From: an uncultured Planctomycetota bacterium
GTDB taxonomy: Bacteria > Planctomycetota > Planctomycetia > Isosphaerales > Isosphaeraceae
Direction: 5' to 3'
Assembly (NCBI GenBank): GCA_963823665.1
Contig: CAWGMQ010000006.1
Coordinates: forward strand, 992,001-1,056,000
DNA: 64,000 nt
Shown: one piece after another, positions 6,426 through 40,564 of the stretch
How the letters are laid out: every line of letters starts with the position of its first letter
Numbering within the stretch: position 1 is the first letter of the stretch
Made by a program: the position numbers and the translations under genes
Notes under the pieces: model-generated
Seen by the model: only the letters and a program-made list of their open reading frames with translations
Told to the model about the DNA's origin: nothing
The model's database searches: none

Positions 6426-6872
6426 GGTCCAAAAGCTGCCGCCCACGCGAGTTGTGATGGTTTGGGCGGTCTGGCCGGGTCGTTTTCGCTCGTTTCGTCC
6501 TGCCCAATCCTCACGAACACTTGTGAAGAAGTCCGATATTACGGTAGCCAAGCGACTCACGTGGAGAATGTGAAGCGCCTGATCACGGAGAGAGACAGGG
6601 TGAGAACCAGGTACGTCGAGGCACGTGCCGCCCGGACGTTGCGCCGATCCGCCAACGGATCTTGGCAGGGAAGCGGTAACTCGCTAGAATCCCGCCGCCT
6701 CGATGCCCGAGAGCACGATCGCAATGCTCAAAACCTTCTCACGTCTCGTCCCGGAGCTAGCTTCTCCACGACGCCGCCTCCGCCGAACTTATTGGCTTAA
6801 TATTGCATAGTGGCCGTTCCAAGGCGGGAAACGGTCGTGGTTCGTTTGTTCTGTTCCATGGAAGGAGGCGCG

Positions 6873-15763: not shown

Positions 15764-16373
15764 ATGGACGAGGTGCCGGACACTCGACCGAGCCTGCTGG
15801 TCCGCCTCTGTGATCCCAAGGACGAGCGTGCCTGGACCGAGTTCACGGCCATTTACTCTCCGCTGATTTACCGATTAGCGCGCCGGAAGGGGTTCCAGCA
15901 CGCCGACTCCGAGGATCTAGTCCAGGAGGTCCTGCGCGGTCGCTTCGTCCGTCGACCGCTGGGAACCCGATCCGTGTAAACGGCCTTTTCGAAACTGGCT
16001 GTTCCGGATCGCGCGGAACATGATGCTGAACCTGGTCGCGAGCCAGCACCGACATCCGCGGGGTACGGGCTCGGAGGAAATTCAGTGGCTACTCGAGACC
16101 CAGCCTTCTCCGTCACCTGCGGACTCCGCGTTATTCGAGACCGAATACAAGCGTCAACTCTTCCTTTGGGCCGCCGAACGCGCCCGCGGCGAGTTTCGGC
16201 CGATCACCTGGGCGGCCTTCTGGGACACCGGGGTCGAGGGCAAGAAGGCACAGGTCGTCGCTGATGCTCTCGGCATAAGCGTCGGCGCCGTCTATATGGC
16301 CAAGAGTCGGGTCGTGGCCCGGATCAGGCAGGTCATCGAACAGGTCGACGGCGAGTGGGCCGGACTGGAATAG
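15764..16373 (+). CDS. ECF sigma factor (2-bp frameshift near 15938)
   Basis: 'TRPSLLVRL.D..D..AW.EF..IYSPLI', 'DSEDLVQEV', 'FRNWLFRIARN', 'VADALGISVGAVYMAKSRV'; the remnant copy at 24651 shows the intact frame LRAVASAVDRW. Confidence 0.9.
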
Positions 16374-16389
16374 CAATAGGGAGCACGCC

Positions 16390-18800
16390 ATGGTGGATCG
16401 TGCCTGTGAGTGCGAAACAGACCGGCTGAGGCGGCACGTGGAGGGCCGGCTCGGGGAGAATGAGCAGGAACTGCTGGCCGCCCATCTCGATCGTTGTGAG
16501 GAGTGCCGCGGTTCGCTCGAGGCGCTGGCCGGCGACGTCGGCTTATGGCGTGACCTGCGTTATTTCCTGGTCGGTGAGTCGGATCTCTCACCGCCCCACG
16601 TCCGTCCGTCCGGCCACGCCCCTGACGAGGGGCGGGGACGGCCCGCGCCCGATGAATGGGATGGGTGGCGGCCAGTCCTCGCTTTCCTCGATCCCCCGTC
16701 GGACCCTCAGTACATGGGTTCCTTGGGTCCGTATCAGATCCTCGAGGTCATCGGCCGAGGGGGGATGGGCGTGGTCTTGAAGGGCTCGGATTCGGTGCTG
16801 GCCCGCGTTGTCGCGATCAAGGTCCTCGCCCCCGAGCTGTCATTCCTCGGCTCGGCCCGGCTGCGTTTCGCCCGCGAGGCCAGGGCGGCGGCGTCGGTGG
16901 CCCACGAGCATGTGGTCGCGATTCACGCGGTCGACTCCTGGAAGGGCCTCCCCTATCTCGTGATGCAGTACGTCCCAGGCAAGTCGCTTCAGGGTCGGAT
17001 CGAGCGCGACGGCCCGCTCGCCGTCCGCGAGGTGCTCCGAATTGGCATGCAAGTGGCTTCGGGCCTGGCGGCTGCCCACGCACAGGGGCTCGTGCACCGT
17101 GACATCAAGCCGGCGAATATCCTCCTCGAGAACGGCATCGAGCGAATCAAGATCACTGACTTCGGTCTCGCCCGCGCGGCCGACGACGCGAGCATCAGCC
17201 AGAGCGGCGTGGCCGCCGGGACGCCGCACTACATGGCGCCTGAACAGGCCCGGTGCGAGCCCATCGACCCCCGCGTCGACCTCTTCGGCTTGGGTGGGTT
17301 GATGTACGCTATGTGCACCGGGCACCCGCCGTTCCGGGCCGAGACCGCGATGGCGGTCCTCCGTCGCGTCTGCGAAGACACCCCGAAGTCGATCCGGGCA
17401 GACCACCCTGACGTTCCGGCCTGGCTCGAGGCGATCATCGCCAGGCTGCTTGCCAAGGACCCGGGGCGCGGTTCCAGACGGCCGCGGAGGTCGCGGATCT
17501 TCTCGGTCAGTGCCTGATCTACCTCGAGCGGCCAACCGCCGCGCCGCCATTCCCGTACGAAGAGGATCACAGGCGTTTTCCCGCCCTTCGAAGCCGGCGG
17601 CGCGCCGCGGCGGTGATGTTTCTGGCGCTCGTCGCAGGGCTCGGGGCGACCGAGGCCGGCGGACTCACTGGCTTCTCCGGGTTGCTGGCGAGGGCTCTTC
17701 GCGGCAAAGTTGCCGTGCGCCAGCCCCCCGCGATCGGCTCAATCCTTGAAGCGCTCGGTCCGGTTCCGGTGACCTGCCGCGATCCAGTCACGCCCTGGCC
17801 GTTCTGGGCCGTCGGCTCCGCGTCTTATTCTCCCGACGGAACAGAGCTGGCAGTCGGCAGCGCCGACGGCTTCGTCACGCTCTGTTCCTCTCGCTCGCGC
17901 CGGCTCCGCGCGATCCTGCCGCACCCGGACCGGGTCATGTCGCTGGCGTATTCACCCGACGGGAAGATCCTCGCCGCCGCGGGGGGCGACTGGGAGATGG
18001 GCACGAGGAAGGGATTCGTCAGGCTCTGGAACGTGGCCAGCGCTCGGGAACTGGCCACCGTTGCGCCGGGGTGCGACATCGAATTCGCCGTGGCATTCTC
18101 CCCTGACGGCAAGACCCTGGCTTGGTGCGGCCGAGATCGCATCATCACGCTCTGGGACGTCGACCAGAATCGCACACGAGCGATCTGCGTCGGCCACGAG
18201 GGGACGGTTCGCGCACTGGCATTCCACCCCAGCGGCGACCGGATGGTCTCCGCCGGGTTCGATGGTACCCTCCGTTTCTGGAACACGGCCACCGGCGCGG
18301 AGGATGGGAAACCCATCCAGCTCGGCGGCAGGTCGTCGAACTGCGTCGCCGTGTCGCCGGACGGCACTGCCCTCGCCTCAAGCACCGGTGGTCCAAGGTC
18401 CGACGACCCGGGTTGGGGTGGTCCCGCGCCGGGTCCGCTCCAGGTCTGGGACTGGAAGACCCGGCAGGAACGGTTCGCCCTCAAGGGGCACCGCTACCGC
18501 ATCCTGGGAGTGTCGTTTTCTCCCGATGGGAAAACCCTCGCCTCAGCGGGAGGCCACTTTTCTGTCGGCGCCGAGGTCAAGCTGTGGGATGTCGCCTCGG
18601 GCCGCGAGCAACACAGCCTCTCGGGGCATCAGTGGTGGGTGGAGTGCGTGGCGTTCTCGCCCGACTCTCGCTTTTTGTTGAGCGCCGGAGGCTTTGAAAA
18701 GAACCCCGGAGAGGTTCGCGTCTGGGACCTGACCTCGCAAGGAAGTAGTACCGAACAAGCCGCCTCGGCCTGGACCCCATTGTCACGGCAATCGCGATAG
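16390..18800 (+). CDS. Ser/Thr protein kinase with N-terminal zinc anti-sigma motif, TM segment and WD40 repeats (frameshift near 17465)
   Basis: 'HLDRCEECR'; GRGGMGVV, HRDIKPAN, DFGLA, YMAPE; adding one G gives 'RFQTAAEVADLLGQCL' in frame with the WD40 ORF (AFSPDG..., LWDV). Confidence 0.9.
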
Positions 18801-18853
18801 ATAAAAGGAGGAGCTCGCTTCGGAGTTCGCCCTACCTCACCGAAAGGGGAATC

Positions 18854-20707
18854 ATGAGCAGAGTGTTTTTCGTCATGATCGGCGTCGTGGCCCTCGTACC
18901 GGGGGTTGACGTATCGGCCGACGAGATCGACGTCGACTTCACCAAACAGAGTTACGACCGCTTTCTGTTCCGCCCGGAGGCCGGGCTCGACGGCGGGCAC
19001 TGGCGTACCAGTGGCAACGGCCTTCACGCCTCCGTGCCGCGCGGGCAGCCGTCACGCGGACCGCTGCGATTCCGGGCTCTCCTGCATCTCGAAGGCGACT
19101 TCGAGATCGTCGCCGGCTTCGAGATCGACCGGCTCCCCCGGCCTGCCGAACCTCCGGCGAAGGGAGAAGTCAAGGACCCGACCAACAACATCGAGATCTT
19201 CCTCTATGCCCCGGACGTGATGGTCACGGTCTTTCGGGACAATCGTCCTTCCGGTGAAGGATGGGGTTTCTATGCGCACTCGCCCGAAGGGGGCTCGACA
19301 ATCCGTCACTTTCCCGCCACGGGGAAGTCCGGCCGGCTTGGCGTACGCCGCTCGGGAGATCAGCTCACGTTCCTCCATTCCGAGGCGGATGGAACGCTCG
19401 TCGAGATGGGAACCGTCAAGTTCAGCACCGGGCCGATCGCCGAGCTCGGGCTCCAGGCGCTGGCGCTGCGCAGCCCCGACGCGATCGATGCCCGTTTCGA
19501 GCGGCTGTCGATCAAGGCGGACAAGATCGTCAGGCTCGAGCAGCCGCCGTCGTCAGGCTGGGGCGGAGGAACCTGGTTGACGCTGGCCGCGGTCGCCATC
19601 CTATTCATCGGCGCCGCGGTGGCATGGCGCCTATGGTCCGGCCGCGATGCGCGAGCGAAGCCGAGGCCTGGCGTCAAGACCGCGGTTGCCTCCGCGGCAA
19701 AAACGGCGGCGAAGCGGGCCGCCGCGAAGCCGAGTCGCGGGTTCACGCTCATCGAGCTTCTGGTTGTCATCACGGTGATCGGTATTCTCATCGCCCTTCT
19801 GCTGCCGGCCGTCCAGGCCGCGCGCGAGGCGGCGCGGCGAGCGCAGTGCACGAACAACCTCAAGCAGATCGGTCTGGCCCTGTCCAGTTACCAGTCGGCC
19901 TTACGCGTCTACCCCTTCGGGGTTGGCGGCGGCGGTCCACCCTCGAGCGGCTTCAACCGCTGGTCGGCCCAGTCGCAGCTTCTCCCCTATCTCGAGCAGA
20001 CCGCCCTGTTCAATGCCCTCAATTTCGCGGGAACCCCGTGGTTGAATCTCAACCCCGAATTCGGGCCGATGAATCAGACGGCCATCACGACCACAATCGC
20101 GGGCTTCCTTTGCCCTACCGACGTCGACCGGATTGACGACCCACTCAACACTGCGCACAACAACTACCGGGCCTGCGCCGGTTCGCTCCCATACAATTTG
20201 AAAAATGACTCACCGGACCTCACCGGTCGTAACAACGGAGGTTTCTGGTACCAGAGTGCGGTGTCGCCGGGCCAGGTCACTGACGGTCTGAGCATGACGG
20301 CGTTTTGGAGCGAGCGTTGCCTCGGAAGCACGACGGCACCGGACCCGCTTTCGGACTATTATATGACGAACGATACAGTGGCCGCGTGCCGGTTGGCCGG
20401 GCCGGCAGACTCGCCCCGGCTGACCGATGCATACGAGTGGTCGGGCGAACGCTGGGCCGACGGGAACTCGCTTTATACTCGTTATAACCACGCCCTCCCT
20501 CCTGGATATCCGAGCTGCCTGCTTGGAGGATCGCAGGACTACGACAGCCAGACGGTGGTGACGGCGACGAGCCGCCACCCCGGCGGCGTGAACCTGATGA
20601 CCGGCGACGGCTCGGTCCGATTCGTGAAGGCGTCGGTGAGCGCAAGCGTCTGGACGGCCCTGGGAACGATCGCGGGAGGAGAAGTGGTCGACGCGAGTGC
20701 GTACTGA
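18854..20707 (+). CDS. DUF1559 prepilin-type protein fused behind an exported N-terminal domain (DUF1583-like) and a TM helix
   Basis: Signal peptide; 'LEGDFEIVAGFEI..L..P' domain; TM 'WLTLAAVAILFIGAAVAW'; internal 'G|FTLIELLVVITVIGILIALLLPAVQAAREAARRAQCTNNLKQIGLA'; C-terminal 'SRHPGGVNLMTGDGSVRFV'. Confidence 0.9.
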   Translation: MSRVFFVMIGVVALVPGVDVSADEIDVDFTKQSYDRFLFRPEAGLDGGHWRTSGNGLHASVPRGQPSRGPLRFRALLHLEGDFEIVAGFEIDRLPRPAEPPAKGEVKDPTNNIEIFLYAPDVMVTVFRDNRPSGEGWGFYAHSPEGGSTIRHFPATGKSGRLGVRRSGDQLTFLHSEADGTLVEMGTVKFSTGPIAELGLQALALRSPDAIDARFERLSIKADKIVRLEQPPSSGWGGGTWLTLAAVAILFIGAAVAWRLWSGRDARAKPRPGVKTAVASAAKTAAKRAAAKPSRGFTLIELLVVITVIGILIALLLPAVQAAREAARRAQCTNNLKQIGLALSSYQSALRVYPFGVGGGGPPSSGFNRWSAQSQLLPYLEQTALFNALNFAGTPWLNLNPEFGPMNQTAITTTIAGFLCPTDVDRIDDPLNTAHNNYRACAGSLPYNLKNDSPDLTGRNNGGFWYQSAVSPGQVTDGLSMTAFWSERCLGSTTAPDPLSDYYMTNDTVAACRLAGPADSPRLTDAYEWSGERWADGNSLYTRYNHALPPGYPSCLLGGSQDYDSQTVVTATSRHPGGVNLMTGDGSVRFVKASVSASVWTALGTIAGGEVVDASAY

Positions 20708-20888
20708 AGACGGCTGCCCAAACGGAGCGGCTTCAAGCACGTAGCTGTGCGGAAACCGAACAGCATCAATCAATAAACCTTACTGATGCAATTCCGTCGT
20801 GTAACGCGCCGGCGTTAAACATGTGGAGGCTTCTCGTCGGTCGTTCCACGCCGTGAGGTTTTTTTTTGAGCAAGAAGGGATGGTCACG

Positions 20889-23747
20889 ATGCGACTGAAG
20901 AAGCTGTGGGTAGCCCTCGTGGCCGTGCCGATCGCCTATGCATTGGGGTGCTCGGCCCGCTGCTCGCCCGGCAGGTGCCGGGTCTGACCGGCAGACTGTC
21001 GCAGCAACCCGGCGTAGCCGCTCTACATGCGGTTGAAAAGCAACTGAAATCGGCGGTGAGCAAAGTTACGCCTGGCGTCGTTGCTGTTGGACCGGGCGCC
21101 TCGGGAGTCATCGTCTCGGCGGACGGCTTAATCCTCACTCAGAGTCACTGCGCACCTGACCCAACGGTCAAAATATGCCTCACTGACGGAACCGAGGAGG
21201 TTGCAGATGTTCTTGGGCCTGATGATGTGTTCGATCTTTGCTTATTGAAACTGCGGAAGCCAGGTCCATACCCACATGTCGATTTTGCGGAAACCATGCC
21301 GAAGCTGGAAAGCTGGATTGTTCTGGCGGGTTATCCGTTGCCTCTGAGTTACAAGAAAGGCCGGCCGGCGGAAATACGGCTTGGCAAACTTCTCTATTCC
21401 ACTTCAACTTTGTTGCCGACTGTCCCACGATGGGTGGAGACTCAGGTGCACCGTACTTCGACCTGAACGGTCGCCTGATCGGCATCGTCGATGGTGCTAC
21501 TTTGTTTACCGATGTCCTGTACCCCGACTGCACAGTCAATCTGGGCAGCCGATGGATGCGCGGAACCCCGGTCAAAGAAGTTCGCAGTCGATTTGAACGC
21601 ATGAAAGGAGGCGAGAAAAATATCGGGCTAAGGCCCGGGGAGCTCTCCTTCCAGGATCGGGCCATGAGACTCCCCTTCACGGACTTGATTCCGGCGGAGC
21701 GACACAGCCATGGAATCAAGACGCTCGAGGCGTTCCGGGAGGCGAATGTCACCGTGAGGGAGAGCGTCGTCGAGGTGCTTGACGGCAATGAGACGGCCGC
21801 CCTTGGTGCCGTCGTGGACGCCGATGGTTTGGTCTGACCAAAGCCAGCGAGGTGCCGGACGGCGTCCGGGTCCGGCTGGCCGACGGACGCATCCTCGCAG
21901 CGGAGGTCGTCGGCGTTGACCCGGCTTATGACCTGGCTTTGCTTCGCCTGCCGACGAGCGGACTGAGGCCTGTCGCCTGGGCAGCCTCCGGTCAGCCCTC
22001 AGTCGGCACTCCGGTGATTGCTGCTGGCCCAGGGCCGCTGCCCGTCAAGATTGGAATCGTGAGCTTGCCGCTCCAGGTGTCGTCCGGACCCTTCAAGAGC
22101 ACGGTCTCGCGCCGGCCGCTCACGCCGGCGATGCCGCCGGCCGTGCTCGGCAGCGGTGTTCCGGGTCGTGGCTACTGGGTGGAGTACGTCGAAGGCAACG
22201 CGGCAGCCGCGGGAATTCGCCCGGGAGACCTGCTGGTCTCGGTCGCGGGAGTGCCCATTCGTTGCCATGAGGATGTGGGGCGCTGTGTCCAGGGCCAACG
22301 CGGCGGGAGTCAAGTGCCCGTGCAGCTTTTGAGAGAGGGCAAGATGCATCGCCTGACACTGACGTTGAAAACGGAGACGCCGAGCGTTCGTTTGATCGCG
22401 GACCGGACCGATCGCATGATTCCGCTCTTACAGTCAGCCGTCTCCCAGGGGCTCCGGCAGGTGCTTACTGACGTTTCCACTAGCCTTGTGACGGATCTTT
22501 CCGTTTTGCGGGCAGTATATAACGATTCTCATAGCCGCGAACGCTTCAGGCCCCCCGCTGCGTTCCCTGTGGCGATCCCCGTCGGCCAAGATGAGTGTGG
22601 TGGGCCGCTGATCGGCCTGGATGGCAAGGTTCTCGGGTTAGTCTGCGAGCGAGCTCATTCGACATTTACCCTGGTGATTCCGGCTGATCGGGTCGTGGAG
22701 TGCTTGAAAGACCTGAAGCAAGGCCGCCCGCTTGGTGCATTGCCCCCACGGGTTAGCACGGTCGCCAACGCCCCTGCTCCGAAGCCTGCCACCGCCACGT
22801 CCGAGGAAGTGATCACAAAGCTCAAAGAGAGAACAGACCGCTACCGTAGCTTGCTCGTCGAATATGACATCACCACGGAAGCCGACGTCGATCCCCAGTT
22901 GCTGGTCGCGTGGCAATTCTCGTTCTTCCGGGATTACCATGAACGTCATCGCGCCGCCTTTCTGGGGCCCAAGCAACTGACCGAGATCATCATCCCCGCT
23001 GGCGATGGCTTTCTTGCGCCCGCGTATGCAGCGACTCCGGACCCAGCCGCTCCCAAGGACGTCTCCCAGCGACTGGCCCAGGCCCAGAGGACGGCCGCCC
23101 AGGCAAGAGACGTCGGGCTCATCCATTGGCACTTGTTGCGCTACCGCCAATCTTCCGGATTACGACGCTTTGTGTTTGATTCGAAGACGGTGGAGTCGCA
23201 GTCGGTGTACGGTGATGAAGACCGCTTCGAAGGATACTTTGCGCCAAAGGATTACCTGGCCAACATCGGACTGCGGCCGATCAGCTTCAGACACTCATTC
23301 GATCCCTCACAGAGCACCAGGAACGGCGACCTGGCGGAAGAGCAAGCCTGGCGGCTTCCGGGGAACTTTGCGCGCCTGCCGCACTGCCGTGTCCGGCCGA
23401 ATGAAGAGAAGGTGGATGGCGCGGGCTGCGTCGTGCTCGAGGCGCCGCTCAAGGACGGAATCGAAACGATCTGGCTTGATCCGGGGCTGGGATATGCTCC
23501 GCGAAAGTGGGAGGTTCGCGCCGGCAATCGGCTGGTCTGGCGAAGGACGGGCAAGGATTTTCGCGAGTTCGCACCAGGATGCTGGCTGCCGCTGGAAGCC
23601 ACCGCGTCTTTCGGACCGCCCGCGTGGACGTCCCTCGTGCCACCAGACCAGTCGGTCTACACGCAACGCATGAGTTTGCGTTACGCTCGTGTGAACGATT
23701 TGCCTGACAGCATTTTCACAAAGGAAGTTCATGCTCGCCGTGACTGA
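20889..23747 (+). CDS. Exported trypsin-like serine protease with a second degenerate protease domain, PDZ and C-terminal domain (3 frameshifts near 20946, 21400, 21835)
   Basis: ATG 20889 'MRLKKLWVALVAVP' after AAGGGA; catalytic-like 'LTQSHC', 'DLCLLK', 'GGDSGAP'; second domain 'LTKAS', 'DLALLR', 'DECGGPL'; PDZ 'AAAAGIRPGDLLVSVAG'. Confidence 0.75.
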
Positions 23748-23979: not shown

Positions 23980-24540
23980 AACGGCATCGGTTGGGACGCA
24001 TATGAGGAGCACTTCTGGGAACAGTGGATCATCCGCTTCGAGTATGCCTACGTCGGCCTGCCGGCCCTGGACGGGCCGGCGTACGCGACCGGCGAAAACC
24101 TCCTCGGCGTGGCGCTGAGCGTCTTAATGCAGCTACCAGCCGACCGCCGTGCCGAGTTGTACGCAGAGGGATTGCGACGGATTGCCGCTTCTGGAGAAAA
24201 TGATTTTCGACGCTTCCTCCTGGCCGAGTGCCTGGAGGCTTACGCCGAGATGGACGAAGCCCAGCACGAGCGACTGCACGCGTTGTTGCACCACGAAAAG
24301 TATCAAGAGGTTGAATCCCTCACGAAGACGACATACGAGCGAGGAATCGAACGAGGAATCGAACGAGGCATTGAGCAGGGCGAGCGGCGGTCGACCATCC
24401 GGCTATTGGAAACCAAGTTCGGCCCATTGTCAGACAAGGTCAAGCAGCGGGTTGAGGGCTCCTCACCCGAAGCGCTGGCCCGAATCCAGCTTGATCCTCT
24501 CGAAGCCCAAGCCCTCGAGGACCTCCGATTAGAGGAGTAA
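23980..24540 (+). pseudogene. C-terminal fragment of an Rpn-like / DUF4351 protein
   Basis: Open from 23980 after a TGA with no convincing start; 'YVGLPALDG..Y..GENLLGVALSVLM', 'TYERGIERGIERGIEQGERR...LLETKFGPLS'. Confidence 0.65.
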
Positions 24541-24572
24541 ACAGGTCTCCAAGCGGTCTAACGGTTTGTTCG

Positions 24573-24867
24573 TTACTCTCCCCAGTTTTACCGATTAGCG
24601 CGACGTAAGGGGTTTTAGCACGCTGACTCCGAGGATCTCGTCCAGCAGGTCCTCCGCGCCGTCGCTTCCGCCGTGGACCGCTGGGAAGCCGACCCGTGTA
24701 AAATGCCTTTTCGCAACTGGTTGTTCCGGATCGCGCGGAACATGATACTGAACCTGATGACCGGCGACGGCTCGGTCCGATTCGTGAAGGCGTCGGTGAG
24801 CGCGAGCGTCTGGACGGCCCTGGGGGCCATCTCGGGAAGAGAAGTGGTCGATGCCAGTGCCTACTGA
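24573..24867 (+). pseudogene. Chimeric remnant: ECF sigma fragment fused to a DUF1559 3' end
   Basis: 24573-24756 aligns to 15853-16034; 24749-24867 aligns to 20589-20707; junction TGAACCTG; in-frame TAG in the ECF part. Confidence 0.9.
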
Positions 24868-25063
24868 CCGCGGCCGGTTCCGTAGATGATGAATGTCCTC
24901 TTCGGCCCATTCGACCACTATGCGTTCCCAGGGACTCAGTTATGAAGAACCGACGATGAGCGCTGGCTGTTCTCGGCAGTGCCGGGCTCGAGACCTCTGT
25001 CCTTCAGCGTGCGCTCGCGGCGAAGGTTGGGCCATGGCGGTGGATGCGAAGACGAGCTTGCGG

Positions 25064-25520: not shown

Positions 25521-26273
25521 TCACGATGTCGCTGACGGAGCGGTCTCAGGGACGCGACCGGCCCTTGCGCCACGTCGACGCCGCCAGCAATAGCCGCCGG
25601 CTGTGAAGAGCCCCCCGATGACCCCCAGAAGGAGCGTGCTCGGTTCGGGGACTGACGCGCCACCGATGACGATCACATTGGAAATCGTCACGCTCGAGGA
25701 ACTATCCGGGTCGGTGCCGCCCGCCAGGCGGAAGAGGATCTCGGCGGACTGGCCGTCCAGGTTGAGCGACGACAGATCGACCGAGACGAGGGCGATGTCC
25801 CCGGACGGGACCGTGACCGTCACGCCCAGGGCGGCCTGCCCCTGCGTGATGCCATCCACAATGTCCCGGGTGTAGAAGGAGTCGGTCGTGGAGTCGACGG
25901 TCGGCACGAGCGAGGCGAGCGTGCTTGGGTTCAGCAGGGAGGCCCCGAAGAAGTCCGGCAGATAGCCGTTGGCATTGTTATTGTCGACAGTCGAATCCGG
26001 CGCGACTGAGTTCAGGGTGAACTGCAGGCTCTGGACCCCAGATGGCATCGTGAACGTGAGGAACAGGTCAGTTTCGAGCGCGAAGGTGCTCTCGGCGATC
26101 GTCGCGAGCCCGCCGGCGGCCGTCAATGTCCCACTATCGCCAGCAGTGGTCCAGCCCGAGAGGCCGTTCGGGAAGCCGAGGATGAGGTCGGCGCGGGCAG
26201 GCGGCCCCGCCGCGGCGATCATCGAGCAAACGACGAGTATTCCGAGAAATCCTGTGAACTTGCGGCATCGCAT
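25521..26273 (-). CDS. PEP-CTERM sorting-domain surface protein
   Basis: Signal peptide ending 'PARAD'; C-terminal 'VPEPSTLLLGVIGGLFTAGGYCWRRRR'; GAGG RBS; 41 bp downstream of the giant gene. Confidence 0.9.
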   Translation of the reverse strand: MRCRKFTGFLGILVVCSMIAAAGPPARADLILGFPNGLSGWTTAGDSGTLTAAGGLATIAESTFALETDLFLTFTMPSGVQSLQFTLNSVAPDSTVDNNNANGYLPDFFGASLLNPSTLASLVPTVDSTTDSFYTRDIVDGITQGQAALGVTVTVPSGDIALVSVDLSSLNLDGQSAEILFRLAGGTDPDSSSSVTISNVIVIGGASVPEPSTLLLGVIGGLFTAGGYCWRRRRGARAGRVPETAPSATS

Positions 26274-26314
26274 CAACTTTACCTCGCAGTCATGAATTAG
26301 AAGGAAGAACCTGG

Positions 26315-29300
26315 TCATGCATCCCGTCGCTCATCGGTCTCTTCGTTCCCTGGGCGGACCCGACCCGTCGGCCAGCCACGAGACACCCAGCATCCCAGCA
26401 GGAGGGCCTTGATACGAGCCATCAAGGACGGGCCGGTCGCTTCTCGGTCGGACTCCGGCTCCGAATCGGGGCGGGGATGATCGGAACCGGGTCTGGTCGC
26501 GGCCTGCGTTTCTCGGCCGGCCGTCGAGGCTGTGTCCGAGGCTTCCCGCACATCGAGAGCCAGCTCATCGGCGATCACCTCGCCGAGCCAGGCGCCGCGG
26601 TCCGGCAAGTCGGCGAAAGCCCCTCCCATGAGGGCGTTGAGGATCGACGGGTCCTGTCTGGCGGTACGATGAGGGCGTCGCGAGGCCAGCCGCCAGAGCG
26701 GGAGGGCCGGCGTCGAGGAGCCGATCGGCCGGCCATGCGTCGGGAACACGTCGGGCGAGTACCGGGCCGATGGCCTGTCGGCGGGATGCGACAGGTCCAT
26801 CGGCCGGCTGAAAGAGGAGACCGACATCATCGACGCGCCCAATGGCGGCAGGGCACCGTGGATGACGCTCGCTTGGAGGGACGGTTGCCCGGACGACAGA
26901 GTGATCGAGTCGAGGGGCTGGAGGGAGGCGGTTGCCAACGTGGCCGTGGAAACGGATGAGGTTGAGGAGGGTGGAACCCAGTTGGCCCGCTCCTCGGAGG
27001 CGGAGTCCGTCGCCGAGAGCTGCGCCTGCACGCGGATCGCGGAGGCGGTGGACGGGGCGGTGATGATAGTACTCGAGGTCCACGACGAGCTGGCCGGCGT
27101 GCCCGATGACGTCGGTCGGGGCGCCTGGCCGGGGATGGCGGCGATGTCGCCCGGTCCAGGGAAGCGGCGCTCACCGGGGGCCAGGGTCTCGGTCATGAGG
27201 TCGTCGGGATAGACCGCCGGGTCGAGGTCCGGCAGACCGAGGACATGGCCCAGTTCGTGCTCAACTACCGTGAAGAGGTCCACCTCGCCGGCGGGAACCG
27301 GGCCGGCTGCGGGGCCGCCGAGGAACCAGGCGTAGCCGTCGGCGTTACGATCGAGCAAGATCAGAGGACTCGGATTCTGGCCGAAGGGAGCCACCTCGAG
27401 ACCGAAAACGCCCTGCGGAAGGCTCAGGATCTCGAACTGGACGCGGTCGAATAAGGCAAGCTGAGAAGCGCCGAGCCCGGCAGCAGACCAGGCGCGCTCG
27501 GCGGCCGCCACGATCGGAGTGAGCTCTTCCGGCGTGAGGGCGCCGGCGGATTGAACCGCGCCAGAACCGGGCGCGACAGCCGCCTCCTGGGGCAGGGCAG
27601 AAAGAGCGAGATTGGTCCAGCCCGTAGTGTCAGACGTGACGACGTTATCGGCAGGATCGAAGACCGAGTGCCAATCGAAAATCAAGACGCTTCCATCGGT
27701 AAGCGCGACGGCCGTTCCATAGTGGACGTTCAGGCTGGGGTTATTGGGATCGGGGCTTTTCGAGACGGCACCGGCCGTGACGACACCGGGCACGATCGTT
27801 TGACTGAGAGCGATTGCCGCCTGCTTGCTGAGAGCGCGATCGATATATGCATTGGCGAAGACCGACTGGAGCTGAGCTGCCATTTGTGGGCCCAGCGAGC
27901 TCGCGGTGCCATTGACGAGTGCGTAGAGGAAATCCGCTAGCCCACCAGGCTGCAATCCCGGAACACCGCTCAAGATGCTGTTGATCTGCTGGGCGAACCC
28001 GGCATCAGCGGCCAGGGCATTGATAATCTCCCTGGTGACGTCCACGACCGAGAACGCCTCAGATTGGCGCCACACGACCCCGTTCGAGTCGACAACCTGT
28101 AGTCCCACGTAATTCGTCCCGGGGATCTTGGAAAGCCCCGCCGGCGTGTAGCTGATCGCTCCCGTCGTCGGATCGTAAGTGATCCCCGGAGTATTGCCGG
28201 AGGCCTGCGCGCTTGGAAACAGCCCCTCCCCGGGCCCAAGGGTGCTGATGTAACCCTGGATGCTGACAGGAGTCTGTCCCGTATAGCTCCCCCCGATCGA
28301 GGGTATTTGCCCAGGGATCACTACGGGGAGGGGCGTGAGAGTCAAGGCATCGCCCTGGCCCGAGATTCCCTTGGCATTTCCGCCGATGGCGATCGGCCCG
28401 AACCCCGGGACGGGTGGCAGGAACGTGAAGAAGAAATTGCCTGAACCAGGTGTGACCTGAAGGTCCGCTTGGATGTCGATCAGGAAGTTGACAAGCTGCT
28501 GTGGGAACCACACACCATTGGTCACATCGTCCACTGGGTACCGGATCAAGATCGGGAGGTCGACCAAGCCTGTGCCCGAGATAAACGAGTTAAATCTAAT
28601 TTTGTGGGAATAGTCGTACTGGACCTCGCTCTCGATCGCGTTGGCATCGTAGACGAAGACGGCGCCATGACCGTTCCCGGTGACGGGAACATCAAATGTG
28701 GCGTAGAGGTATCGGCCATCGGGAGAGATGGAAAGACCGTGTGGGAACGCCTCGGGCAGCGGTCGGGTGGCTGCGACCACGCCGCGCAACCCGCCGTTGA
28801 TGGTCGCGGCCGCGCTCGGGTCCACGGCGAAGTTGAGCGGATCTGCGATGACGGCGATGTTGCTCCCGGCAAGGTAGGGGCTATCGTACGACCACGCAAT
28901 ATTCCGCTTTGGGATGTTTTGGTTGGGGACATCAAATGCCGTCACGAACGCAAACTCGGCATCGGGGGTAAAGACGATCTTTTGCGCGCCGCTCACGTCG
29001 AACGACGCAGGAACAGCCGGTTGACCGTTGATCGGCTTGTTGAGAGTAAACGGGATGTACTGTGCGGTATTTGTAGTCAGATTCAGGAAACCGACTCCCT
29101 TGGCATCGTCGGCGATGTCCGTGAACGCCACAATATTCGGGTCGGGGCTGGCAGTGACGCCGTACGGGTACACGCCCACCGTGAGCCGCTTGGTCTGCAA
29201 TGGCTGGCCCGATGTCCAGAATGCCGTCCAGGATGGAAGACTGGGATCGACCGTCACGGTCCAGATCTTGCCGTTGTCACCGGCGTTGGCCGTAAGGTAA

Positions 29301-32300
29301 GACGTGCCCAAGGGCGCCGCGACCACGAGGTAGCGGCCGTCGCCGGAGACGTCTAATCCCGTCAGCCCGTTGGCGACGTTCAGCGATATGGTGCGATACT
29401 GAAGGTATGTGGGAGAGTTTGGATCGATGTCCACGACATATACGTTCCCGACATTCTGATCCGAGATGAACGCGTACTGGTCATTCGGACTGATGGCGAT
29501 CTGGAACGGCTTGGCGTTCGCGGGCAGCGAGATGGCGGTTGGCGAGCCCAGCCCTGAGCCCGAGGCACCAACCGACTCCAGGATCGTTTGCGCGTCAAGC
29601 TGTTGCAGCCCAACGGCGTCGATCACCGCGAACCCCCCGGACCCGACCACGAAGACGCGGCTGTTGTCGTGGGTAACCGCGAGGTATTGCGGGATGATTC
29701 CCTCGATCGGGATCGTGTCGATTTGCTGGTTGAACGTCGACGACATCGGATTTGCGTCGATGACCGAAATCGCGCCCACCGTGGGCTGCGCGGTGGGCTG
29801 CGTCGAGAATTCATAGATGGGCTTTGGTTGGATATTGATGACGTTGCTCTGCGGGCCCTCGCTGACTATGTTTCCCATCTGGTCGCGGAGAACCCGTTCC
29901 ACCGAGATCTGGGCCAGACCAAGAGTGACAGTGCGCGGGATGTTGACTGTGATTTCCGTCGAAGTCACAGTGACGGGCTGAGCCGTCCAGGTCTGCCCCT
30001 CACTGCCAGTCTGGAAATTGACCACGGTGTCAGTTGTGTCGCCGAAGTTGCTTCCATCGATGACGAGCACGGTCGAGCCGCCACTGAACTGCAAGTTGGC
30101 TTGACTTAGAACTGGGGGCTGCGCGTCGGGCGAAGGATCAACGACGATACTGACCGGATTGACCCCGGCGGCGACGGTGACCTGGCCGGTTGTCACATTG
30201 GGCGGGCCTACCTTGGGAATGACGAAGGCCATGAAGTTGTTAGGCCCCAGGGGAAGGTTGATGGCTCCGAGGTTTAATGGACTCAGAGCGACTCCCACGC
30301 CTCCTGCCACGAACGCGGCCCCAAGCCCCACGGCGAGAATTCCGGCCAACGATAACGGAATGAGAGCGACCGAGATCAGGGCAAGTCCGGTCGAGAGCGA
30401 CAGGGCGGCCAAGAGCAGCGATGTGCGATCGACACCCTTGAAGGGAGGCGAATTCGTGTGCATGTAGCCGTCCGATCCGACGACACCGGTGTCGACCTGC
30501 ATCCAGATCGGTTGTTCTACGCCCGCGTCGTCCGGCAGACTATCAGCTCGGTAGAGAAAGATCGTCGTGCCCGCCGGCACGCCGGGCATCGGAATGGCGA
30601 GCTGAACCGGCTCGCTCAGGATCCCGCTGCCGAGCTGGAGGTTGACTGCCCCGGCGAAGCTCAGCCAGCTCGGCACGGGAATCGGAAGATTCGCCAGGGT
30701 TACGGGCGTGATGCTCACGCTGGCGGGCGCCGGCAATGCGTTCGGGGCAATCTGCACGAGTGAGCCATCGGAACCTGCCACGACGCCGCCCGCAGCTCCA
30801 ATCGTGACGGGGCCTGAACGAGGCGGCTCGACGTGCACGTGGATGACCGACGTTGCCGGACCGTTGATCACCGTGACTGTCGCGTCGCCCGCGCCGACCG
30901 AGGTTATCAGGCCGTCCTTCGTCACGGCGATTACTTTGGTATTGCTAACATAGTAAAGCGTGCCGGTCGATGCCGCAGCGAGGTCAACGTTTCCTTGAAG
31001 GCTGACGTCGATCTGCCTTGACCCGCCCACACTCGGCAATGAAACAGTCGCCGGATAGATCGTGAGTCCTTCGGCGTACAGACCCTGCTGGGTCGGGTCG
31101 GTCGGCACGCCGACGGTCACGGCGGTCACCGCCTCGACGCCGTGGCTGGAGACGATCAGCACGGTCGTCCCGTCGCTCACGGCCGTAAGCAGGCCGCTGG
31201 CGGACACCGAAGCGATCGACGGCGAGATCGTCGTGATCGTGAAGTACGACGCCGGAAGCGTCGACTCGGTGCCATCGGAGAACTCGCCCGTCACGACGAT
31301 CTGCTCGCTGTTTCCCGCCTGGAGGCGGGGCTCACGCTGCTGGAAATCCATGCCGACCAGGACCGCACTGCTCACGGTCACGCTGATCGTGGCCGGGGCG
31401 GACGTGCCATACCCGTCATCGGCCACGTACTGGAAGCTGGCGGGACCGGTGTAGCCCGCGGCCGGGACGAAGGTCGCCGTCAGGCCGTCGGACGAGAGGG
31501 TCACCGTGCCGTGCAAGGCATCGAGCACACGGAAGTAGATCGGGTTGCCCGCGGGGTCGGTCGCCAGATTGGCGAGGTTCGCCGAAACCGGCAGGTCGAT
31601 GTGCGTCACCGCCTGTCCGGCCGAGGCGACCGGCGGGAGCGCGGCCTGGAAGCCGAGGTCGGCAGCCAGGAGCTCGTCGTCCGCGGCATTGACGGTGCCG
31701 TCCTGGTTGGCGTCGGCGGCGAGGAGATAGCCCGACTGGCCCACAGAGGTCCCCAGCGCCGCCCCCAGGAGCTGCGCGTCGTTGCCGTCGACCTTGCCGT
31801 CGCCATTGACGTCTCCGGCGACGAAGAGGTGCAGTGTGTACGCGCCCGATGTCGAGCCATTGGCCCCGGACAGCGAAAGCAGCTCCAGGCCGCCCTTGGT
31901 GATCGCGTACAGAGCGAAGGAGCCATGCGCCGTGGTGTGGCTCGCCACGGGGACGAGGCCGGCGATCGCCGGGATGGCCGGCTGGAATGAGCTGCCCGAA
32001 GCCGCCTGCACCGAGATCCCCACGAAGACCTCGCCGGAAGTCGTGGCCTGGATCTCCGACGGCTCGAAGCTGAAGGCATAGCGATTGGTACCGCCGGTCG
32101 CCAGCGTGCCGGACTGATCCGAGGCGAGGAACTGTCCCGAGCTGCCCAGGTCGGCCACGATCGGCAATGACGCGGCGGCCGGCGCGTACTGGACGGCGAC
32201 GCTGGTGCCGGCCGTGGGCGAGACTGCCTCGATCAGGCGATCCGAGGATGCCGATTCATAGCCATATCGGCTCGACTGGCCCGCGGCCAGGTTGCGGGCC

Positions 32301-35300
32301 GAGACCAGGTTGCCCGCGGCGTCGTAGGTGTAGACGATGCGCGTGCCGTCCGGCGCGATGGCCGACGTGATGCGGCCCGATGCGTCGTGCGTGAACACGA
32401 TGGCCTGCCCGTTCGAGGCGGTGATCCCGCTGTCATTGAAGGTCAGGCTACTGCCGTCGGGGCGGATGATTTCCTGGACGCCGCGGGCAGTGCTCACGTC
32501 GTAGGTCGTGCCGTCCGGGGCCGTGATCGTGTATTCGGGGCCGGCGTAGAGGTCGGCCGCCGGGTTATACGCCAGGCCGGTCTTGAGGTCGTCGTAGCGG
32601 TTGCCCGCCTGGACGAGCGGACCGCCGGCCGAGGTGAGCGTGTAAGCCACACCCGCGTCCGCCGTGTAGGCCGGCGTGTAATATGTCAGCCCGTTGATCT
32701 GGTGCTTGACCGGCGTGAATGTGAAGCCGACGCGCTGTCCTGTGGGCAACGTCAGGTAGACCCGCGTGCCGATCAGGAACGGGTTGTAGATGCCGGACGA
32801 CTCGAGGCCCGTCGGCGGCACGGTCGTCTGGATCTCCACGTCCTGGCTGGCCAGCCGCCAGCCATTGCCGAACGTGCCGGACTGGGTCGCGTCCAGCGAG
32901 TCATACGAGCGAACGAGGTTGAAGACCGAGCCCGCCAGGCTCACGGAGAGGTCGGTCTCGCCCCGGAGGTACTGCGTCGGCTTGGTTGCGGTGTCGGCCT
33001 CGACGGTGACGGTCGTCTGGCCCGTGCGTCCGGCGATGTCGGTAGCCGTCAGGCGCAGGACATAGGGCCCGTTCGCAATCGCCGTGGGGTCAAGAGTCGC
33101 CAGCGTCGCGTTAGAGACGGGGCTGTTACCGCTGGCAAGGGTCGTGAAGGTCGACGAACCAACCGGGGCGCGATCCAGTACCCAGGAGTCGAGGTTGGTA
33201 TCGCTGACCGTGCCGACGATTGCGGTGCTTGCGGTCAGCCGCGCGTTGGCAAGCTGAGGACTGAACGCAACGGCTGGCGGGGACTGATCGAGAGGATCGA
33301 CGACCTTGATGACCGTCGCAAACTGGCCGACGAGCCCGTCGGCGTCAGTGCCCGTTGCGGATACCGCGATCCGGCCGGGTGCCGTCGGCGTGTACGTCGC
33401 TCGGCCCTGGCTGTCGAGCACGACCGGCTTGCCCGCGATCGTGAGCGTCAGCCCGGTGATCGGCGCCAGGCTCGACGCGGCGACGTGGACGAGGACCGCC
33501 TGGCCCGGCTTGGCCGGGAAGCTGGGCGTCAGCTCAATCAGGAGCTGCGGCGGCACGGGGTTGATCTCGCCGCGGAGCACGACCGTCTGGGTGGTCGTCA
33601 GCTCGCCGTCGGAGACCGCGAACTGGACGTCGTAATCCCCGACCTGCGCCGGCCCGGGAGTCCACGACACCGCGCCGCTATGTGCGTCGAGCGTAGCACC
33701 CTGCGGCAATCCGAGAGCCGAGTAGGTCAGCACCGTGCCCTGGTCGGGATCGCTGCCTTGAAGGGTAAAACTGAGCGGTTGACCCACCGCGGCCTGGTGG
33801 CTGGTCACGACGAGGAAGGGCGGCCGGTCGACGTTGTCGATGTGGACTTTCACATCCGTCTGGTCGGTCAATCCGCCCGGGCCGGTGACGCCGAAGACGA
33901 TCGAGTAATCGCCCGACTGGTCGTAATTCGGGGTCCAGTTGAACTGGCCGGTCTTGGCGTTGAACTGCGCGTCGGCTGGCAGCCCGGAGATCGCACTGTA
34001 GCTCAAGGGACCGCCGCTCGGATCGCCGGCGGCGATCGTGAACTGGAGCGCCGTGCCCTCGCTCCCGTCCTGCTCGACGAGCGGGACGAGCTTCGGCGGC
34101 TGGATGACCGTGATCACGTAGATCGTCAGGGGCTCGGTGGTCGTCAGGTAGCCGTCGCTGGCGCCTACGACGATGCCGCCGTACGTGCCCGACTGGAACA
34201 GGTTGGGCGCCCAGGTGATGACGCCGGAGACCGGGTCAAACGTCGCCCCGGGCGGCAGGCCGGTGGCCGAATACAGCAGTGGGTCGCCGTCCGGGTCGGT
34301 GGCCTCGATCGGCAGCGTGAGCGTCTGTTGCTGGGCGATCGTCTGGGTCGCCATCGGGACCAGCACGGGCGCCTGGTCGTTCTGCCGGACGACGAGATTG
34401 ATCGACTGCTGGTCGCCCAGGACGTCGGCGGGATTGCCGTTGCCGTTGTCCACGACCGTGAAGACGACCGTGCTCCGGCCCAGGTCGCTCGATGTCGGCG
34501 TCCAGTCGAAGACGGTTTCACCATACGTCGAGGAGGGGGTGAGCGTCGCGCCCGGCGGCAGCCCGAGGGCGCCGAAGGTCAGCGGGTCCTGGTCGAGGTC
34601 GGTCGCCACGATCGTGAATTGCAGATCCTTGCCGGCGACCGCGACCTTGTCGCCGATCGCGGCCAGGTGGGGCGGGCGGTTGGGGTTGTTGACCGTGACG
34701 ACGAAGCTCTGCGACGCCGAAAGTGCTGCGGCCGGCCCGCCGCCATCGCCGTTGTCGGTGGCCGAGAGCGTGATGGTGAAGCTGCCGGAGTCGTCCACGG
34801 TGGGCGAGAACGTGAACGTGCCGGTGCCGTCGCCGTTGTCGACGAACGTCGCGTAAGCGGGCAGGCCCAGGCCCGCCGTCCCGGAGGCCGTCAGCACCAT
34901 CGGGTCGCCGTCCGGGTCGACCGCCTGGACGGGGAGGGTCAACGTCGTCGCGTCGTTGACGGTCTGGTTCGCGATGAAGGTGATCTGAGGAGCCCGGTTC
35001 ACATTGATGATCGTGATCGGCACGCTCACCGTCGCGCTCAGGGGGACGCCCGTGCCGTCGCCGTCGTTGGTGGCGGTGAAGGTGACGAGATACCTGCCGG
35101 CGTCCGTGTAGCCGGTCTGCCAGTTGAAGATGTCCGTCTGCGGGTCGAATGTCGCGCCGGCGGGCAGCCCGCTGACAGTGTAACTGATGGTTGGCGCCGT
35201 ACCCTCCAGGGGTGTCAGGGATCCGTCGGGCAACCGCTCCTGCGGGATGAAGCCGGGGTTGTTGGGATCGAGTGCGAAGGCCCGGAAGTTGATCTGCTGG

Positions 35301-38300: not shown

Positions 38301-40564
38301 GCCGGGTCGATCGCCTGGAGCAGCCAGGTGATCGTGCCGGAATGGATGTCGATGCCCGCGCTGACGCGGAGGATGAACCCCTTCGACTGGGTGAAGTCGA
38401 AATCCCCCTGGAACGAGCCGACGGTGTTGGGGATGTGGACCTGGAGGTCGCCGATCTGGAGGTCGCCCAGGCGGAAGCTGCGGGGATCGAGGTTGGGGTC
38501 GAGCTGGCTGACGATCCTGATCTGGCCGGCGCCCGTCGTGGACGACGGGTTTGTGAACTGTATCGTGTAGGGCAGCGGCTCTCCGGTGGGGACGAAGTCC
38601 TGCGACCCGTAGCCGAACGGCCCGATCAACTGCGCCTGGCCCGAATCCGCCCCGCCCGAGAAGAACGGCGAGAAATTGGGTGGCTGGACGGGGACGAAGT
38701 TGGGGTCCTCGGGGTTGCTCGAATCCGTGTCGGCATCCTGGTCGTAGTCGTTGGAGTAATTGACGTAGACGGTGAACGACTCGGTGTGCGTCGGGCTCGA
38801 TTGCTGGAGGTCGAAGGCGCTGGCGGGCGGGGCGTTGCCGGTGACGATGTCGCCCGCCTCGTCTTGATTGTCGACGAAGCGGCTGCCGATATAGGGGCTC
38901 GTCTGGGTCGGGTCGTTACCATACCACTGAGCGACCTGCGAGAAGAACGCGGCGAGGTTGCCGCTAGTGACGATCTGCTGGCCGGCGGGCCCGGCCAGGA
39001 TGCCGGCGGACAGCGTGGCCAGCAGGCTGACGACCTGGGGGTTCTGCTGGACCGCCGGGGGCTCGTCGGCCGGAGCGAGCAGACCGGCCTGGGTGAGCCC
39101 GGCCAGGTAGAGGTCGGCCCAGGTCGCGGCGTCCGACGCCAGGACCTGCAACGAGGCCGACGCATTGGGATCCTGTAGGATCTTCTCGCGCAGGGTCTCC
39201 GCGTATTGTTCCTGTTGGGCGATGAACTGAGCGGTTGTTAAGGCCGTCGCCGAGGCCGTGATGTCGAACTGGAACGCGGTGTCGGAGGGGGGGCTCATTC
39301 CCGCACTCGGGGGCACGCCGTCGGGATAGGTCTGGACCAGCAGGCTGAGCCCGAAGTTCGAGGCGTCGGGCATGTTCAGGGCATAGCCGCTCGCCAGGTC
39401 CTCGCCGCCGACGTCGGCCACGGGGTTGACGCTCGCCCAGGGGACGCCGCTGACCTGCGGGCTGGCGCCGGTGCCCAGGTCGGTCGAGAGGGCCAGATGC
39501 CGGTACTCATCGGGCTGCGGATAAGGCCCCGCGATCCCGTCGAGCTCGGGGACCCCGACCTGGATGAAGACATACGGGATGTCGACGTTGGTGACGCTCT
39601 GCACGGTCACGCCGTAATACGCCTGGTTGCCCGCCGTCAGGACCCGCGTGCCGCCGAGCGCCACCGCGACGTCGGGCGGTAGCGTTGCCTCCACCAGGTA
39701 GCGATAGGGGTCGACCGCCACGGAGCCGTCGGGGTTGATGACTTCGAGGTCGTACAGCCCGTGCGGGGCGCCCGTCAGGTCGAAGATGGCGGTGATGCTG
39801 GTGCTGTTGACCACCTGGCAGCTCACCGGCTCGTACTCGGCGAACCCGGGCCGCACCAGCTTGACGATCGCCTGGGGATCGAACTGGGCGCCGAGGATCG
39901 TGGTGGTCACGTACTTACCGTCGCCCCCCGTATCGGGCAGGACGTCCGTGATCTCGAAGGGCAGCACGTTGGCCACCAGGGTGACCGGAGTGTTGGCCGA
40001 CCCCTCCGACTGCCCCCGGACCAGGATCAGGTATAGGCCCGCCTGGGTCGAGGGCACGACGGCGTACTGGTTCGCCTGGAGCGCCCCCTGGTACAGGGCG
40101 TCGTACTGGAAGGCGGTCGGGACGGCCTGGTAGCGGAGGTAGAGCTCGTTGGAATCGCCCGATTTCGAGTCAGTCAGGTCGACGCGCAGCGTCTCGCCGA
40201 GCCCGACGTTGACCTCGAACAGGCGGACCTGGCCGGTGCTCAGTGTCGTACTGACGGGAACGCCAAGCTGAAGCTCGGGCACGGTCACGTTGATCGCGTC
40301 GGCCGAAGCCGTGGTGTTGTTGCCGTAGTTGCTCTCGACCACGTCGTCGAAGATGTCGGTGCGGACGATGATGCGGTACTGGCCGGCCGCGGCCGCCGGC
40401 AGGTCCGCGGTGAGCGTGGACGTGTACGAGTCGCCGGCGTCGAGCTCGCCGCTGTGCACGACCTGGCCGATCAGCGGGTCGTCGACGCTCCAGGTCGGGC
40501 CGGTCGCGAGGTAGACCGAGTCGGTCCACGTGCCGTCGGCCGGGTAGGCGCCGATGTTCTGCAC
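26315..40564 (-). other. Giant gene segment: last CARDB, propeller, putative-Ig repeats, YD repeats, dockerin-like, hydrophobic hairpin, propeller, matrixin-like metalloprotease
   Basis: 4749-aa ORF; 'LPPGATFDP..G..W.P' repeats; 'YTYDAAGNL'; 'GDVNGDGKVDGND...DANQDGTVNAAD'; 'HELGHVLGLPD...DDLM'. Confidence 0.85.

Follow-up and report, generated by a model that had tools for sequence, protein, structure and literature searches.

Can the class III signal recognised by prepilin peptidases lie deep within a protein, behind an exported domain, and still serve as a cleavage site? The question is raised by a gene at positions 18854–20707 of the forward strand of a 64,000-nucleotide stretch of contig CAWGMQ010000006.1 (positions 992,001 to 1,056,000; assembly GCA_963823665.1) from an uncultured planctomycete of the family Isosphaeraceae, hereafter the window. 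Its open reading frame, uninterrupted by any stop, encodes 617 residues: a predicted signal peptide leads into a ConA/lectin-fold domain, which is followed by a membrane helix, a linker rich in basic residues, a pilin helix starting at G296|F297TLIE, DUF1559 and an H-X9-DG motif. We consider this chain to be probably a polyprotein, likely cut by prepilin peptidase after Gly296 into two proteins, one lectin-like and anchored in the membrane, the other a mature pilin. Behind this proposal stand the frame, its conservation across relatives, the constraint at positions -1 and +5 of the site, the existence of split equivalents and a peptidase gene in the host genome.

Domain organization of the encoded protein

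The protein was compared with profile libraries, which placed N_methyl at residues 293–317 (31.7 bits, cut-off 21.2) and DUF1559 at 321–595 (147.9 bits) in Pfam, as well as TIGR02532 at 295–317 and the H-X9-DG family TIGR04294 at 571–592 (nucleotides 20564–20629) in NCBIfam; N_methyl, DUF1559 and H-X9-DG all scored above the curated cut-offs. An earlier sequence-only reading had located the signal G|FTLIEL at codon 296/297 (nucleotide 19742), and these coordinates proved right: the Gly296 codon occupies 19739–19741, that of Phe297 begins at 19742, and both N_methyl and TIGR02532 were above cut-off. The in-frame signal peptide, domain of ~210 residues, transmembrane helix and Lys/Arg-rich linker that it described ahead of the site were likewise seen by hydropathy, charge and fold model. 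The signal peptide and topology were derived from the sequence pattern, in which hydropathy and charge delineate a signal-like h-region (residues 5–16), the helix at 242–258 and a hydrophobic pilin helix of 24 residues (297–320), with E301 at +5.

The label of DUF1583-like domain stood in part. The profile (PF07622) was above cut-off, but marginally so (residues 156–225, 24.9 bits against 22.9, model positions 167–238, or ~70 of 256), and of the homologues compared with it two fell under the cut-off and one gave no match. In the structure model, the domain block (residues 21–230; predicted local distance difference test score, pLDDT, 66–95) best matched 5joz (Z 18.4, root-mean-square deviation 3.3, 183 aligned residues), with many other matches at Z 14–18, and superposed on the beta-sandwiches of the GH43 C-terminal domain, GH16 and legume lectins, while Foldseek returned legume lectins at E about 1e-8. 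Identity to solved members of the fold was 6–14%. Judged by the model, a ConA/lectin-type fold is the better description of the domain. Among 150 representatives of it, 51 are stand-alone proteins consisting of domain, membrane helix and short tail, and 65 contain multiple copies, many of them multi-helix, multi-repeat membrane proteins without the prepilin motif. By eye, P0181, P0191 and L028 join the lectin-like domain and helix to multi-helix membrane proteins resembling GT-C glycosyltransferases. In P0151 and P0162, the domain accompanies only C-terminal DUF1559-like pieces lacking the pilin helix, possibly owing to internal deletion or misassembly.

The part following the site (19742–20704) was modelled separately from 90 sequences, the DUF1559 part being unusable in the full-length model built from 12. 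This second model (pLDDT 92, first helix at 3–54) gave 24 fold matches with Z of at least 2, of which 23 were pilins or pseudopilins, although the best Z was only 4.8 (6xxd, root-mean-square deviation 3.3, 114 aligned residues). Foldseek returned zero matches for it at E ≤ 0.001, and in a sequence search of the PDB the pilin helix alone matched. The fold matches, which align over residues 1 to ~300, suggest that DUF1559 has a pilin core into which a large segment is inserted, and that no solved structure is close to it. As a separate observation, P0112 joins leucine-rich repeats to the same DUF1559 clade, without a pilin helix.

Distribution and frame of the fusion

Further fusions of domain, membrane helix, N_methyl and DUF1559, the search for which the sequence-only reading had proposed as a check, were found in number. 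Two protein searches were pooled into a set of 65 fused proteins, from which the frameshifted P0051 was omitted. Used as the sole query, the N-terminal part retrieved 25 proteins, 20 of which run in frame into DUF1559, with one fragment lacking that domain and four that are out of frame earlier. At the genome level, 27 of 121 genomes of the same family matched at 32 places, comprising 13 intact fusions, of which 9 are plain and 4 have a kinase ahead, 5 disrupted by a frameshift or stop, 8 split adjacent genes, 2 gene pairs with one intervening gene, 3 other settings and 1 locus outside this classification. Protein and genome sets overlap, and their counts are not additive. Outside the family, 1 of 400 genomes of the phylum, with seven candidates scored per genome, matched at E ≤ 1e-25, and this was a split pair. 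The names of the homologues are those of Isosphaeraceae-type planctomycetes; named carriers are Paludisphaera mucosa (P0096) for the plain form and Aquisphaera giovannonii (P0030) and A. insulae (P0032) for the kinase form, while Singulisphaera acidiphila (P0074) has an unfused pilin.

Although the distance from domain to site ranges over 153–264 nucleotides, the frame was kept in all 12 intact loci compared. A short-read contig from a public run was identical to the window over 19632–19782, which spans the joint between linker and pilin, and further contigs showed 0–1 differences over 19377–19609; this comparison covers the matches listed only, and the best-matching run may be the source sample.

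Conservation of the internal site

Only two residues occur at position -1 across the 65 fused proteins, Gly (58 proteins) and Ala (7), and Glu+5 is present in all; Arg occupies -2 in 52, and -3 to -6 are scattered. The linkers, of 9–73 residues, contain 24% Gly plus Ala and are net positive in 64 of the 65. On a tree of 63 fused proteins (length 21.5), -1 changed five times, always between Gly and Ala, and Glu+5 not once; by comparison, each of positions -3 through -12 changed 26–37 times, and the first (membrane) helix averaged 24 changes. According to PMC10191384, these two residues and no others are permitted at -1 of prepilin leaders, and the substitution results given in PMC6497953 are that G-1A is processed and G-1S is not, with E5 required for assembly and not for cutting. 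The site was also present in every fusion found by motif-blind routes, namely 20 of 20 obtained with the N-terminal query, 13 of 13 intact genome loci and 6 of 6 among the 150 domain representatives.

Recent fusion does not explain this conservation, since the window protein belongs to a clade whose 29 tips are all fused (support 1.0, length 4.5), and other clades made up entirely of fused proteins also contain Gly/Ala differences at -1. Trees were computed with FastTree, together with a quick domain tree; their deep nodes are weak, and we claim no direction of fusion or fission. The tree of fused and unfused proteins omitted 14 partial or broken proteins and any with fewer than 230 residues of DUF1559.

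The same genome provides a control, as its other N-terminally extended DUF1559 proteins (two DUF4190 fusions among them) are without the motif. Ordinary DUF1559 proteins of this genome have leaders of 5–12 residues in 11 of 11 cases. Around long DUF1559 frames, 20 stretches (out of 114 matches) were inspected, and no other long-leader DUF1559 protein with an intact site was found in them; the long frames there were non-coding run-ins or motif-less fusions. By these comparisons, the internal site is, as far as sequence can tell, under selection.

Split relatives and alternative leaders

The two putative products exist as separate genes in relatives. With the domain first, L054, L055, L060 and L029 encode domain, membrane helix and short tail, then a stop, followed by a short-leader pilin; L061, L072, L073 and L030 show the reverse order. 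In L060, the domain and pilin genes share one frame, with a single TGA between them (6729–6731), and may be a fission/fusion intermediate or a case of possible read-through. A GTG with a strong ribosome-binding score lies soon after this TGA. Fused and unfused states interchanged at least 12 times on the tree, where some "unfused" proteins may be partial. Pairwise identities of the two parts correlate (r 0.93 over 703 pairs), for which shared descent alone could suffice.

Other leaders precede the same site. Eleven of the 65 fused proteins carry a Ser/Thr kinase plus membrane helix, which replaces or precedes the signal peptide, and the site, at residue 576–724, is intact. The VAIK, HRD and DFG motifs are kept in 10 of the 11, and kinase presence changes six times on the tree. 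In seven, the kinase helix is joined to what looks like the end of the old signal peptide, such that the predicted in-out-in-out topology is preserved; from their sequences, these look like deletions (of a WD40 sensor). The remaining four (P0028, P0029, P0030 and P0032) keep a Met and the whole signal peptide right after the kinase helix, and GGGAG precedes that Met in both loci checked (L062 and L071). Judging by this arrangement, these four may start separately at that Met, a candidate in-frame start nested in the longer gene, so that one long and one short product would be made.

A GT2 glycosyltransferase domain (dolichol-phosphate-synthase-like) stands directly before an intact G|FTLxE-DUF1559 segment in P0055, P0064, P0067, P0086 and P0107, from two tree branches, as a leader of 250–280 residues predicted to be fully cytoplasmic. 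One such GT2-pilin locus is L079:1762-3441; when metagenomes were scanned with the GT2 fusion as query, 1 of 80 matches was in frame, the rest being mostly plain GT2 genes. Several deep-branching loci adjoin GT2, PMT_2, PIG-V-like and GT87 genes. The lectin fold and the gene neighbours weakly suggest a glycan-related surface role.

Proposed processing of the precursor

The host genome has three Peptidase_A24 matches, one of which (L075), with cysteine motifs and both aspartate motifs, we take to be PilD-type from a comparison by eye with PilD features. There are also 19 T2SSE matches, some of them fragments, with several assembly ATPases, and 114 DUF1559 matches. The window protein has what is expected of a prepilin in the residue at -1 (Gly or Ala), the hydrophobic stretch with Glu+5, the positive-inside charge pattern (on the predicted topology), and a peptidase and machinery in the host. 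It departs from the canonical form in that the signal is not N-terminal: 296 residues stand before the cut, among them a predicted signal peptide, the beta-sandwich domain and the membrane helix. PilD acts at the cytoplasmic face without the help of other proteins, as described in PMC10191384; accordingly, a chain running from the outside through the membrane helix and the cytoplasm into the pilin helix would, provided the predicted topology holds, offer the site on the right side of the membrane.

In the proposed sequence of events, signal peptidase I would remove residues 1–22, and the beta-sandwich would fold outside the cytoplasmic membrane, with helix 242–258 stopping transfer and the basic linker remaining in the cytoplasm. 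PilD would then cut G|F and probably N-methylate Phe297, in line with established PilD chemistry and the selection at -1, to yield, from a precursor of 63.7 kDa, products of ~29.6 and 34.2 kDa. The freed pilin would pass to one of the type IV filament machines that the genome encodes, as the invariant Glu+5 suggests, and the two products might act together in some glycan-related function of the cell surface. The fusion would in this way do the job of the two-gene operon of relatives, fixing a 1:1 ratio. The sequence-only reading had anticipated cleavage into an anchored domain and a pilin at this ratio: the Gly/Ala-only -1, the invariant Glu+5 and the split genes that match the products agree with it, and the cut itself we infer from sequence. 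Its further suggestion, that the leader holds the pilin until processing, gained no specific support.

Several points weigh against cleavage or its consequences. Conservation is high along the entire pilin helix, where a column changes 6 times on average, and structure could account for part of the constraint at -1. The 65-protein set was partly ranked by a motif-containing query, and its members are related. P0148, a protein of domain and membrane helix without DUF1559, has a decayed site, G|FVLLP. Where the linker behind the anchored leader has only 9–16 residues, access of PilD might be hindered, and the literature searched shows no cutting of ordinary planctomycete DUF1559 prepilins. Finally, the glycan role is a weak suggestion, drawn from fold and neighbouring genes.

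Alternative explanations

Some of these points would equally suit a chain that stays mostly uncut, as a two-helix membrane hairpin displaying the lectin-like and DUF1559 domains side by side, with the motif serving helix packing or recognition by the assembly platform. Conservation along the whole pilin helix, the short linkers that might block the peptidase and the frequency of the lectin-like domain in motif-less membrane proteins all speak for such a hairpin, cleavage being itself deduced from sequence. We nevertheless regard it as unlikely: position -1, which lies outside the helix, swaps only Gly for Ala, as the peptidase rule demands; the extended DUF1559 proteins of the genome have lost the motif; and both parts are made separately in split relatives.

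Regulated cutting, in which the leader would retain the pilin until a signal arrives, or pilin release would alter a receptor kinase controlling the adjacent extracytoplasmic function (ECF) sigma factor, appears highly unlikely. It draws on the N-terminal kinases with their largely intact motifs, on their repeated gain or loss along the tree and on the ECF-kinase pair that precedes the window gene. The linker, however, shows no conserved Ser/Thr or other regulatory motif across the 65 proteins and the 63-sequence tree, so that a phosphorylation gate was rejected; many deep-branching loci lie in glycosylation clusters without a kinase; and of the kinase fusions, four may start separately and seven look like sensor deletions. 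A further reading would make prepilin peptidase a general polyprotein-processing protease in these planctomycetes, with an anchored lectin, a receptor-type Ser/Thr kinase plus its sensor or a lipid-carrier glycosyltransferase, each functional by itself, in the place of the leader peptide. Release of the pilin from the kinase form would then switch the neighbouring ECF sigma factor and couple maturation to transcription. This idea seems rather unlikely as a whole.

A slim chance is left to translation of the pilin from a start in the linker, in which case the long frame would join two genes on paper only; an internal start in 19640–19740 had been named as a possible refutation of the polyprotein. 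Eleven of the 65 linkers hold a Met (54 do not), and single loci have a GTG or ATG with a fair ribosome-binding score (L071 at -3, L064 at -8, L065 at -30), although the positions of such candidates are not shared between loci. In the window, no in-frame ATG, GTG or TTG occurs from -40 to -1, and none was found within 40 codons in L062, L063 and L068. An in-frame TTG at -55, preceded by GGAGG, is found in the window and L002, but the GGAGG is missing in L003, and the product would keep the membrane helix in its leader. Genuine split pilin genes, by comparison, show clear starts: the three checked have their own, with ribosome-binding energies of -6.6 to -10 kcal/mol. A conserved internal start was rejected on the linker scan and the unshared positions elsewhere.

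The last possibility, also foreseen in the sequence-only reading, that an assembly error joined two genes, has a negligible chance and was rejected: both upstream genes are frameshifted in this assembly, but the fusion recurs in several databases (65 proteins, some of them from named species of Aquisphaera and Paludisphaera), keeps its frame across the variable spacers and is matched at the joint by short-read contigs.

Genomic context and feature coordinates

The window fusion gene sits downstream of an ECF-kinase gene pair, and in relatives the kinase is fused to the pilin protein. Both genes of the pair are interrupted, and short-read contigs differ from the window by two bases at the sigma factor break and by one base at the kinase break (contigs of two runs), which makes both frameshifts likely assembly errors. 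A scan for promoters and terminators gave no signal clearly above shuffled sequence, and among the public sequencing runs listed as matching the locus there was no RNA run. Coordinates are summarized in Table 1.

Table 1. Positions, within the window, of the fusion gene, its encoded parts and the two genes upstream.
Feature	Positions	Strand	Basis
ECF-type sigma factor gene, frameshifted near 15933	15764–16373	+	Profile matches; orthologue intact in L002
Ser/Thr kinase-transmembrane-WD40 gene, two frames, break near 17464	16390–18800	+	Pkinase, WD40; three-frame view
Shine-Dalgarno-like AAGGGG, upstream of ATG	18844–18849	+	Duplex energy -7.8 kcal/mol
Predicted Sec signal peptide, residues 1–22, V-S-A|D	18854–18919	+	n/h/c pattern; plain fused homologues with similar N-termini
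ConA/legume-lectin/GH43-C-type beta-sandwich, residues 23–232, predicted extracytoplasmic	18920–19549	+	Fold model; marginal Pfam DUF1583
Predicted transmembrane helix, out to in, residues 242–258	19577–19627	+	Hydropathy 2.38, uncharged; counterpart helix in homologues
Basic linker, predicted cytoplasmic, residues 259–296, Gly-1 at end	19628–19741	+	11 Lys/Arg versus 1 Asp/Glu; start-codon scan
Internal class III (prepilin peptidase) site, G296|F297-T-L-I-E301	19739–19756	+	N_methyl, TIGR02532; conservation in fused proteins
Predicted mature pilin-like protein, 321 residues: alpha-1 helix, DUF1559, H-X9-DG	19742–20707	+	Profiles, fold model

Further along the window, a trypsin/PDZ (HtrA-like) gene at 20906–23747 is in three frame pieces, probably through assembly errors. 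On the reverse strand, open frames at about 24440–24918 echo those that overlie the 3' end of the DUF1559 gene on that strand (see 20210–20773); the resemblance suggests a partial duplicate of the end of that gene, ~4 kb downstream. A predicted surface protein of 4749 residues is encoded at 26315–40564 (reverse strand), beside a PEP-CTERM protein at 25521–26318 (reverse strand).

Implications and comparison with known systems

Class III signals are usually treated as N-terminal tags with a short, discarded leader. If the chain described here is cut, prepilin peptidase would also process polyproteins, a leader could be a second functional protein, and searches confined to N-termini would presumably miss such pilins. 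The family offers a ready test system, in that fused, split and reversed forms coexist, named species carry them and the predicted products differ clearly in size. For one of ~100 DUF1559 paralogues per genome, it also supplies a constant partner and a setting in glycosylation clusters, which offers a way into a large, functionally uncharacterized family. No precedent for a prepilin with a folded, membrane-anchored leader was found in the literature searched (DUF1559, DUF1583, prepilin), which was mainly open-access and mostly covered at title level.

Membrane polyproteins cut by signal peptidase are familiar from FbcH of Bradyrhizobium (cytochrome b-c1) and from viral envelope polyproteins. 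As with the window chain, a membrane precursor gives rise, through a housekeeping signal peptidase, to two anchored proteins that are separate in other organisms. There, type I signal peptidase acts at the outer face, whereas the window chain would be cut by prepilin peptidase at the cytoplasmic face. The DUF4190-DUF1559 and similar extended proteins (L036, L039) share a membrane-spanning extension ahead of DUF1559, but they lack G|FxxxE and look permanently anchored, unlike the studied family, which keeps the site.

Among proteins handled by type IV machinery, the minor pilin PilC of Streptococcus sanguinis is, as described in PMC6497953, likewise paired with a ConA-like lectin domain. PilC carries that domain at its C-terminus and retains it after maturation; the window protein has it at the N-terminus, on a membrane anchor separate from the pilin helix, and cleavage would part it from the pilin. 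Closest in domain content are the planctomycete proteins with N_methyl, SBP_bac_10 (DUF1559) and H-X9-DG. The section of PMC8567305 on N_methyl plus SBP_bac_10 genes notes that their neighbours frequently encode type I or II signal peptides, in agreement with the split form; the same section reports expression (25 of 91 members of the expanded family) and fractionation, and mentions neither processing nor fusion. DUF1559 is also named, without further treatment, in passages of PMC2754498 and PMC5352709. Ordinary members in this genome have leaders of 5–12 residues; in this clade, a signal-peptide-bearing neighbour, a kinase or a GT2 domain has been fused before an intact site.

With type IV prepilins at large (IPR012902, PF07963, TIGR02532; A24 peptidases PilD/GspO), the window protein shares Gly/Ala at -1, hydrophobic residues from +1 to +24, Glu+5, basic residues ahead of the site and, in the model, a long alpha-1 helix and mostly pilin fold matches, if at low Z. 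PMC10191384 places the class III signal at the N-terminus and gives it a hydrophilic leader whose length varies, and prepilin leaders of 8–18 residues are given for Streptococcus sanguinis in PMC6497953. The window site, by contrast, lies 296 residues into the chain (up to ~720 in relatives), and a predicted signal peptide, an exported domain with a fold of its own and a membrane helix come before it. The architecture is conserved and real; its signal is not N-terminal, yet by every sequence test applied it has the marks of a peptidase substrate.

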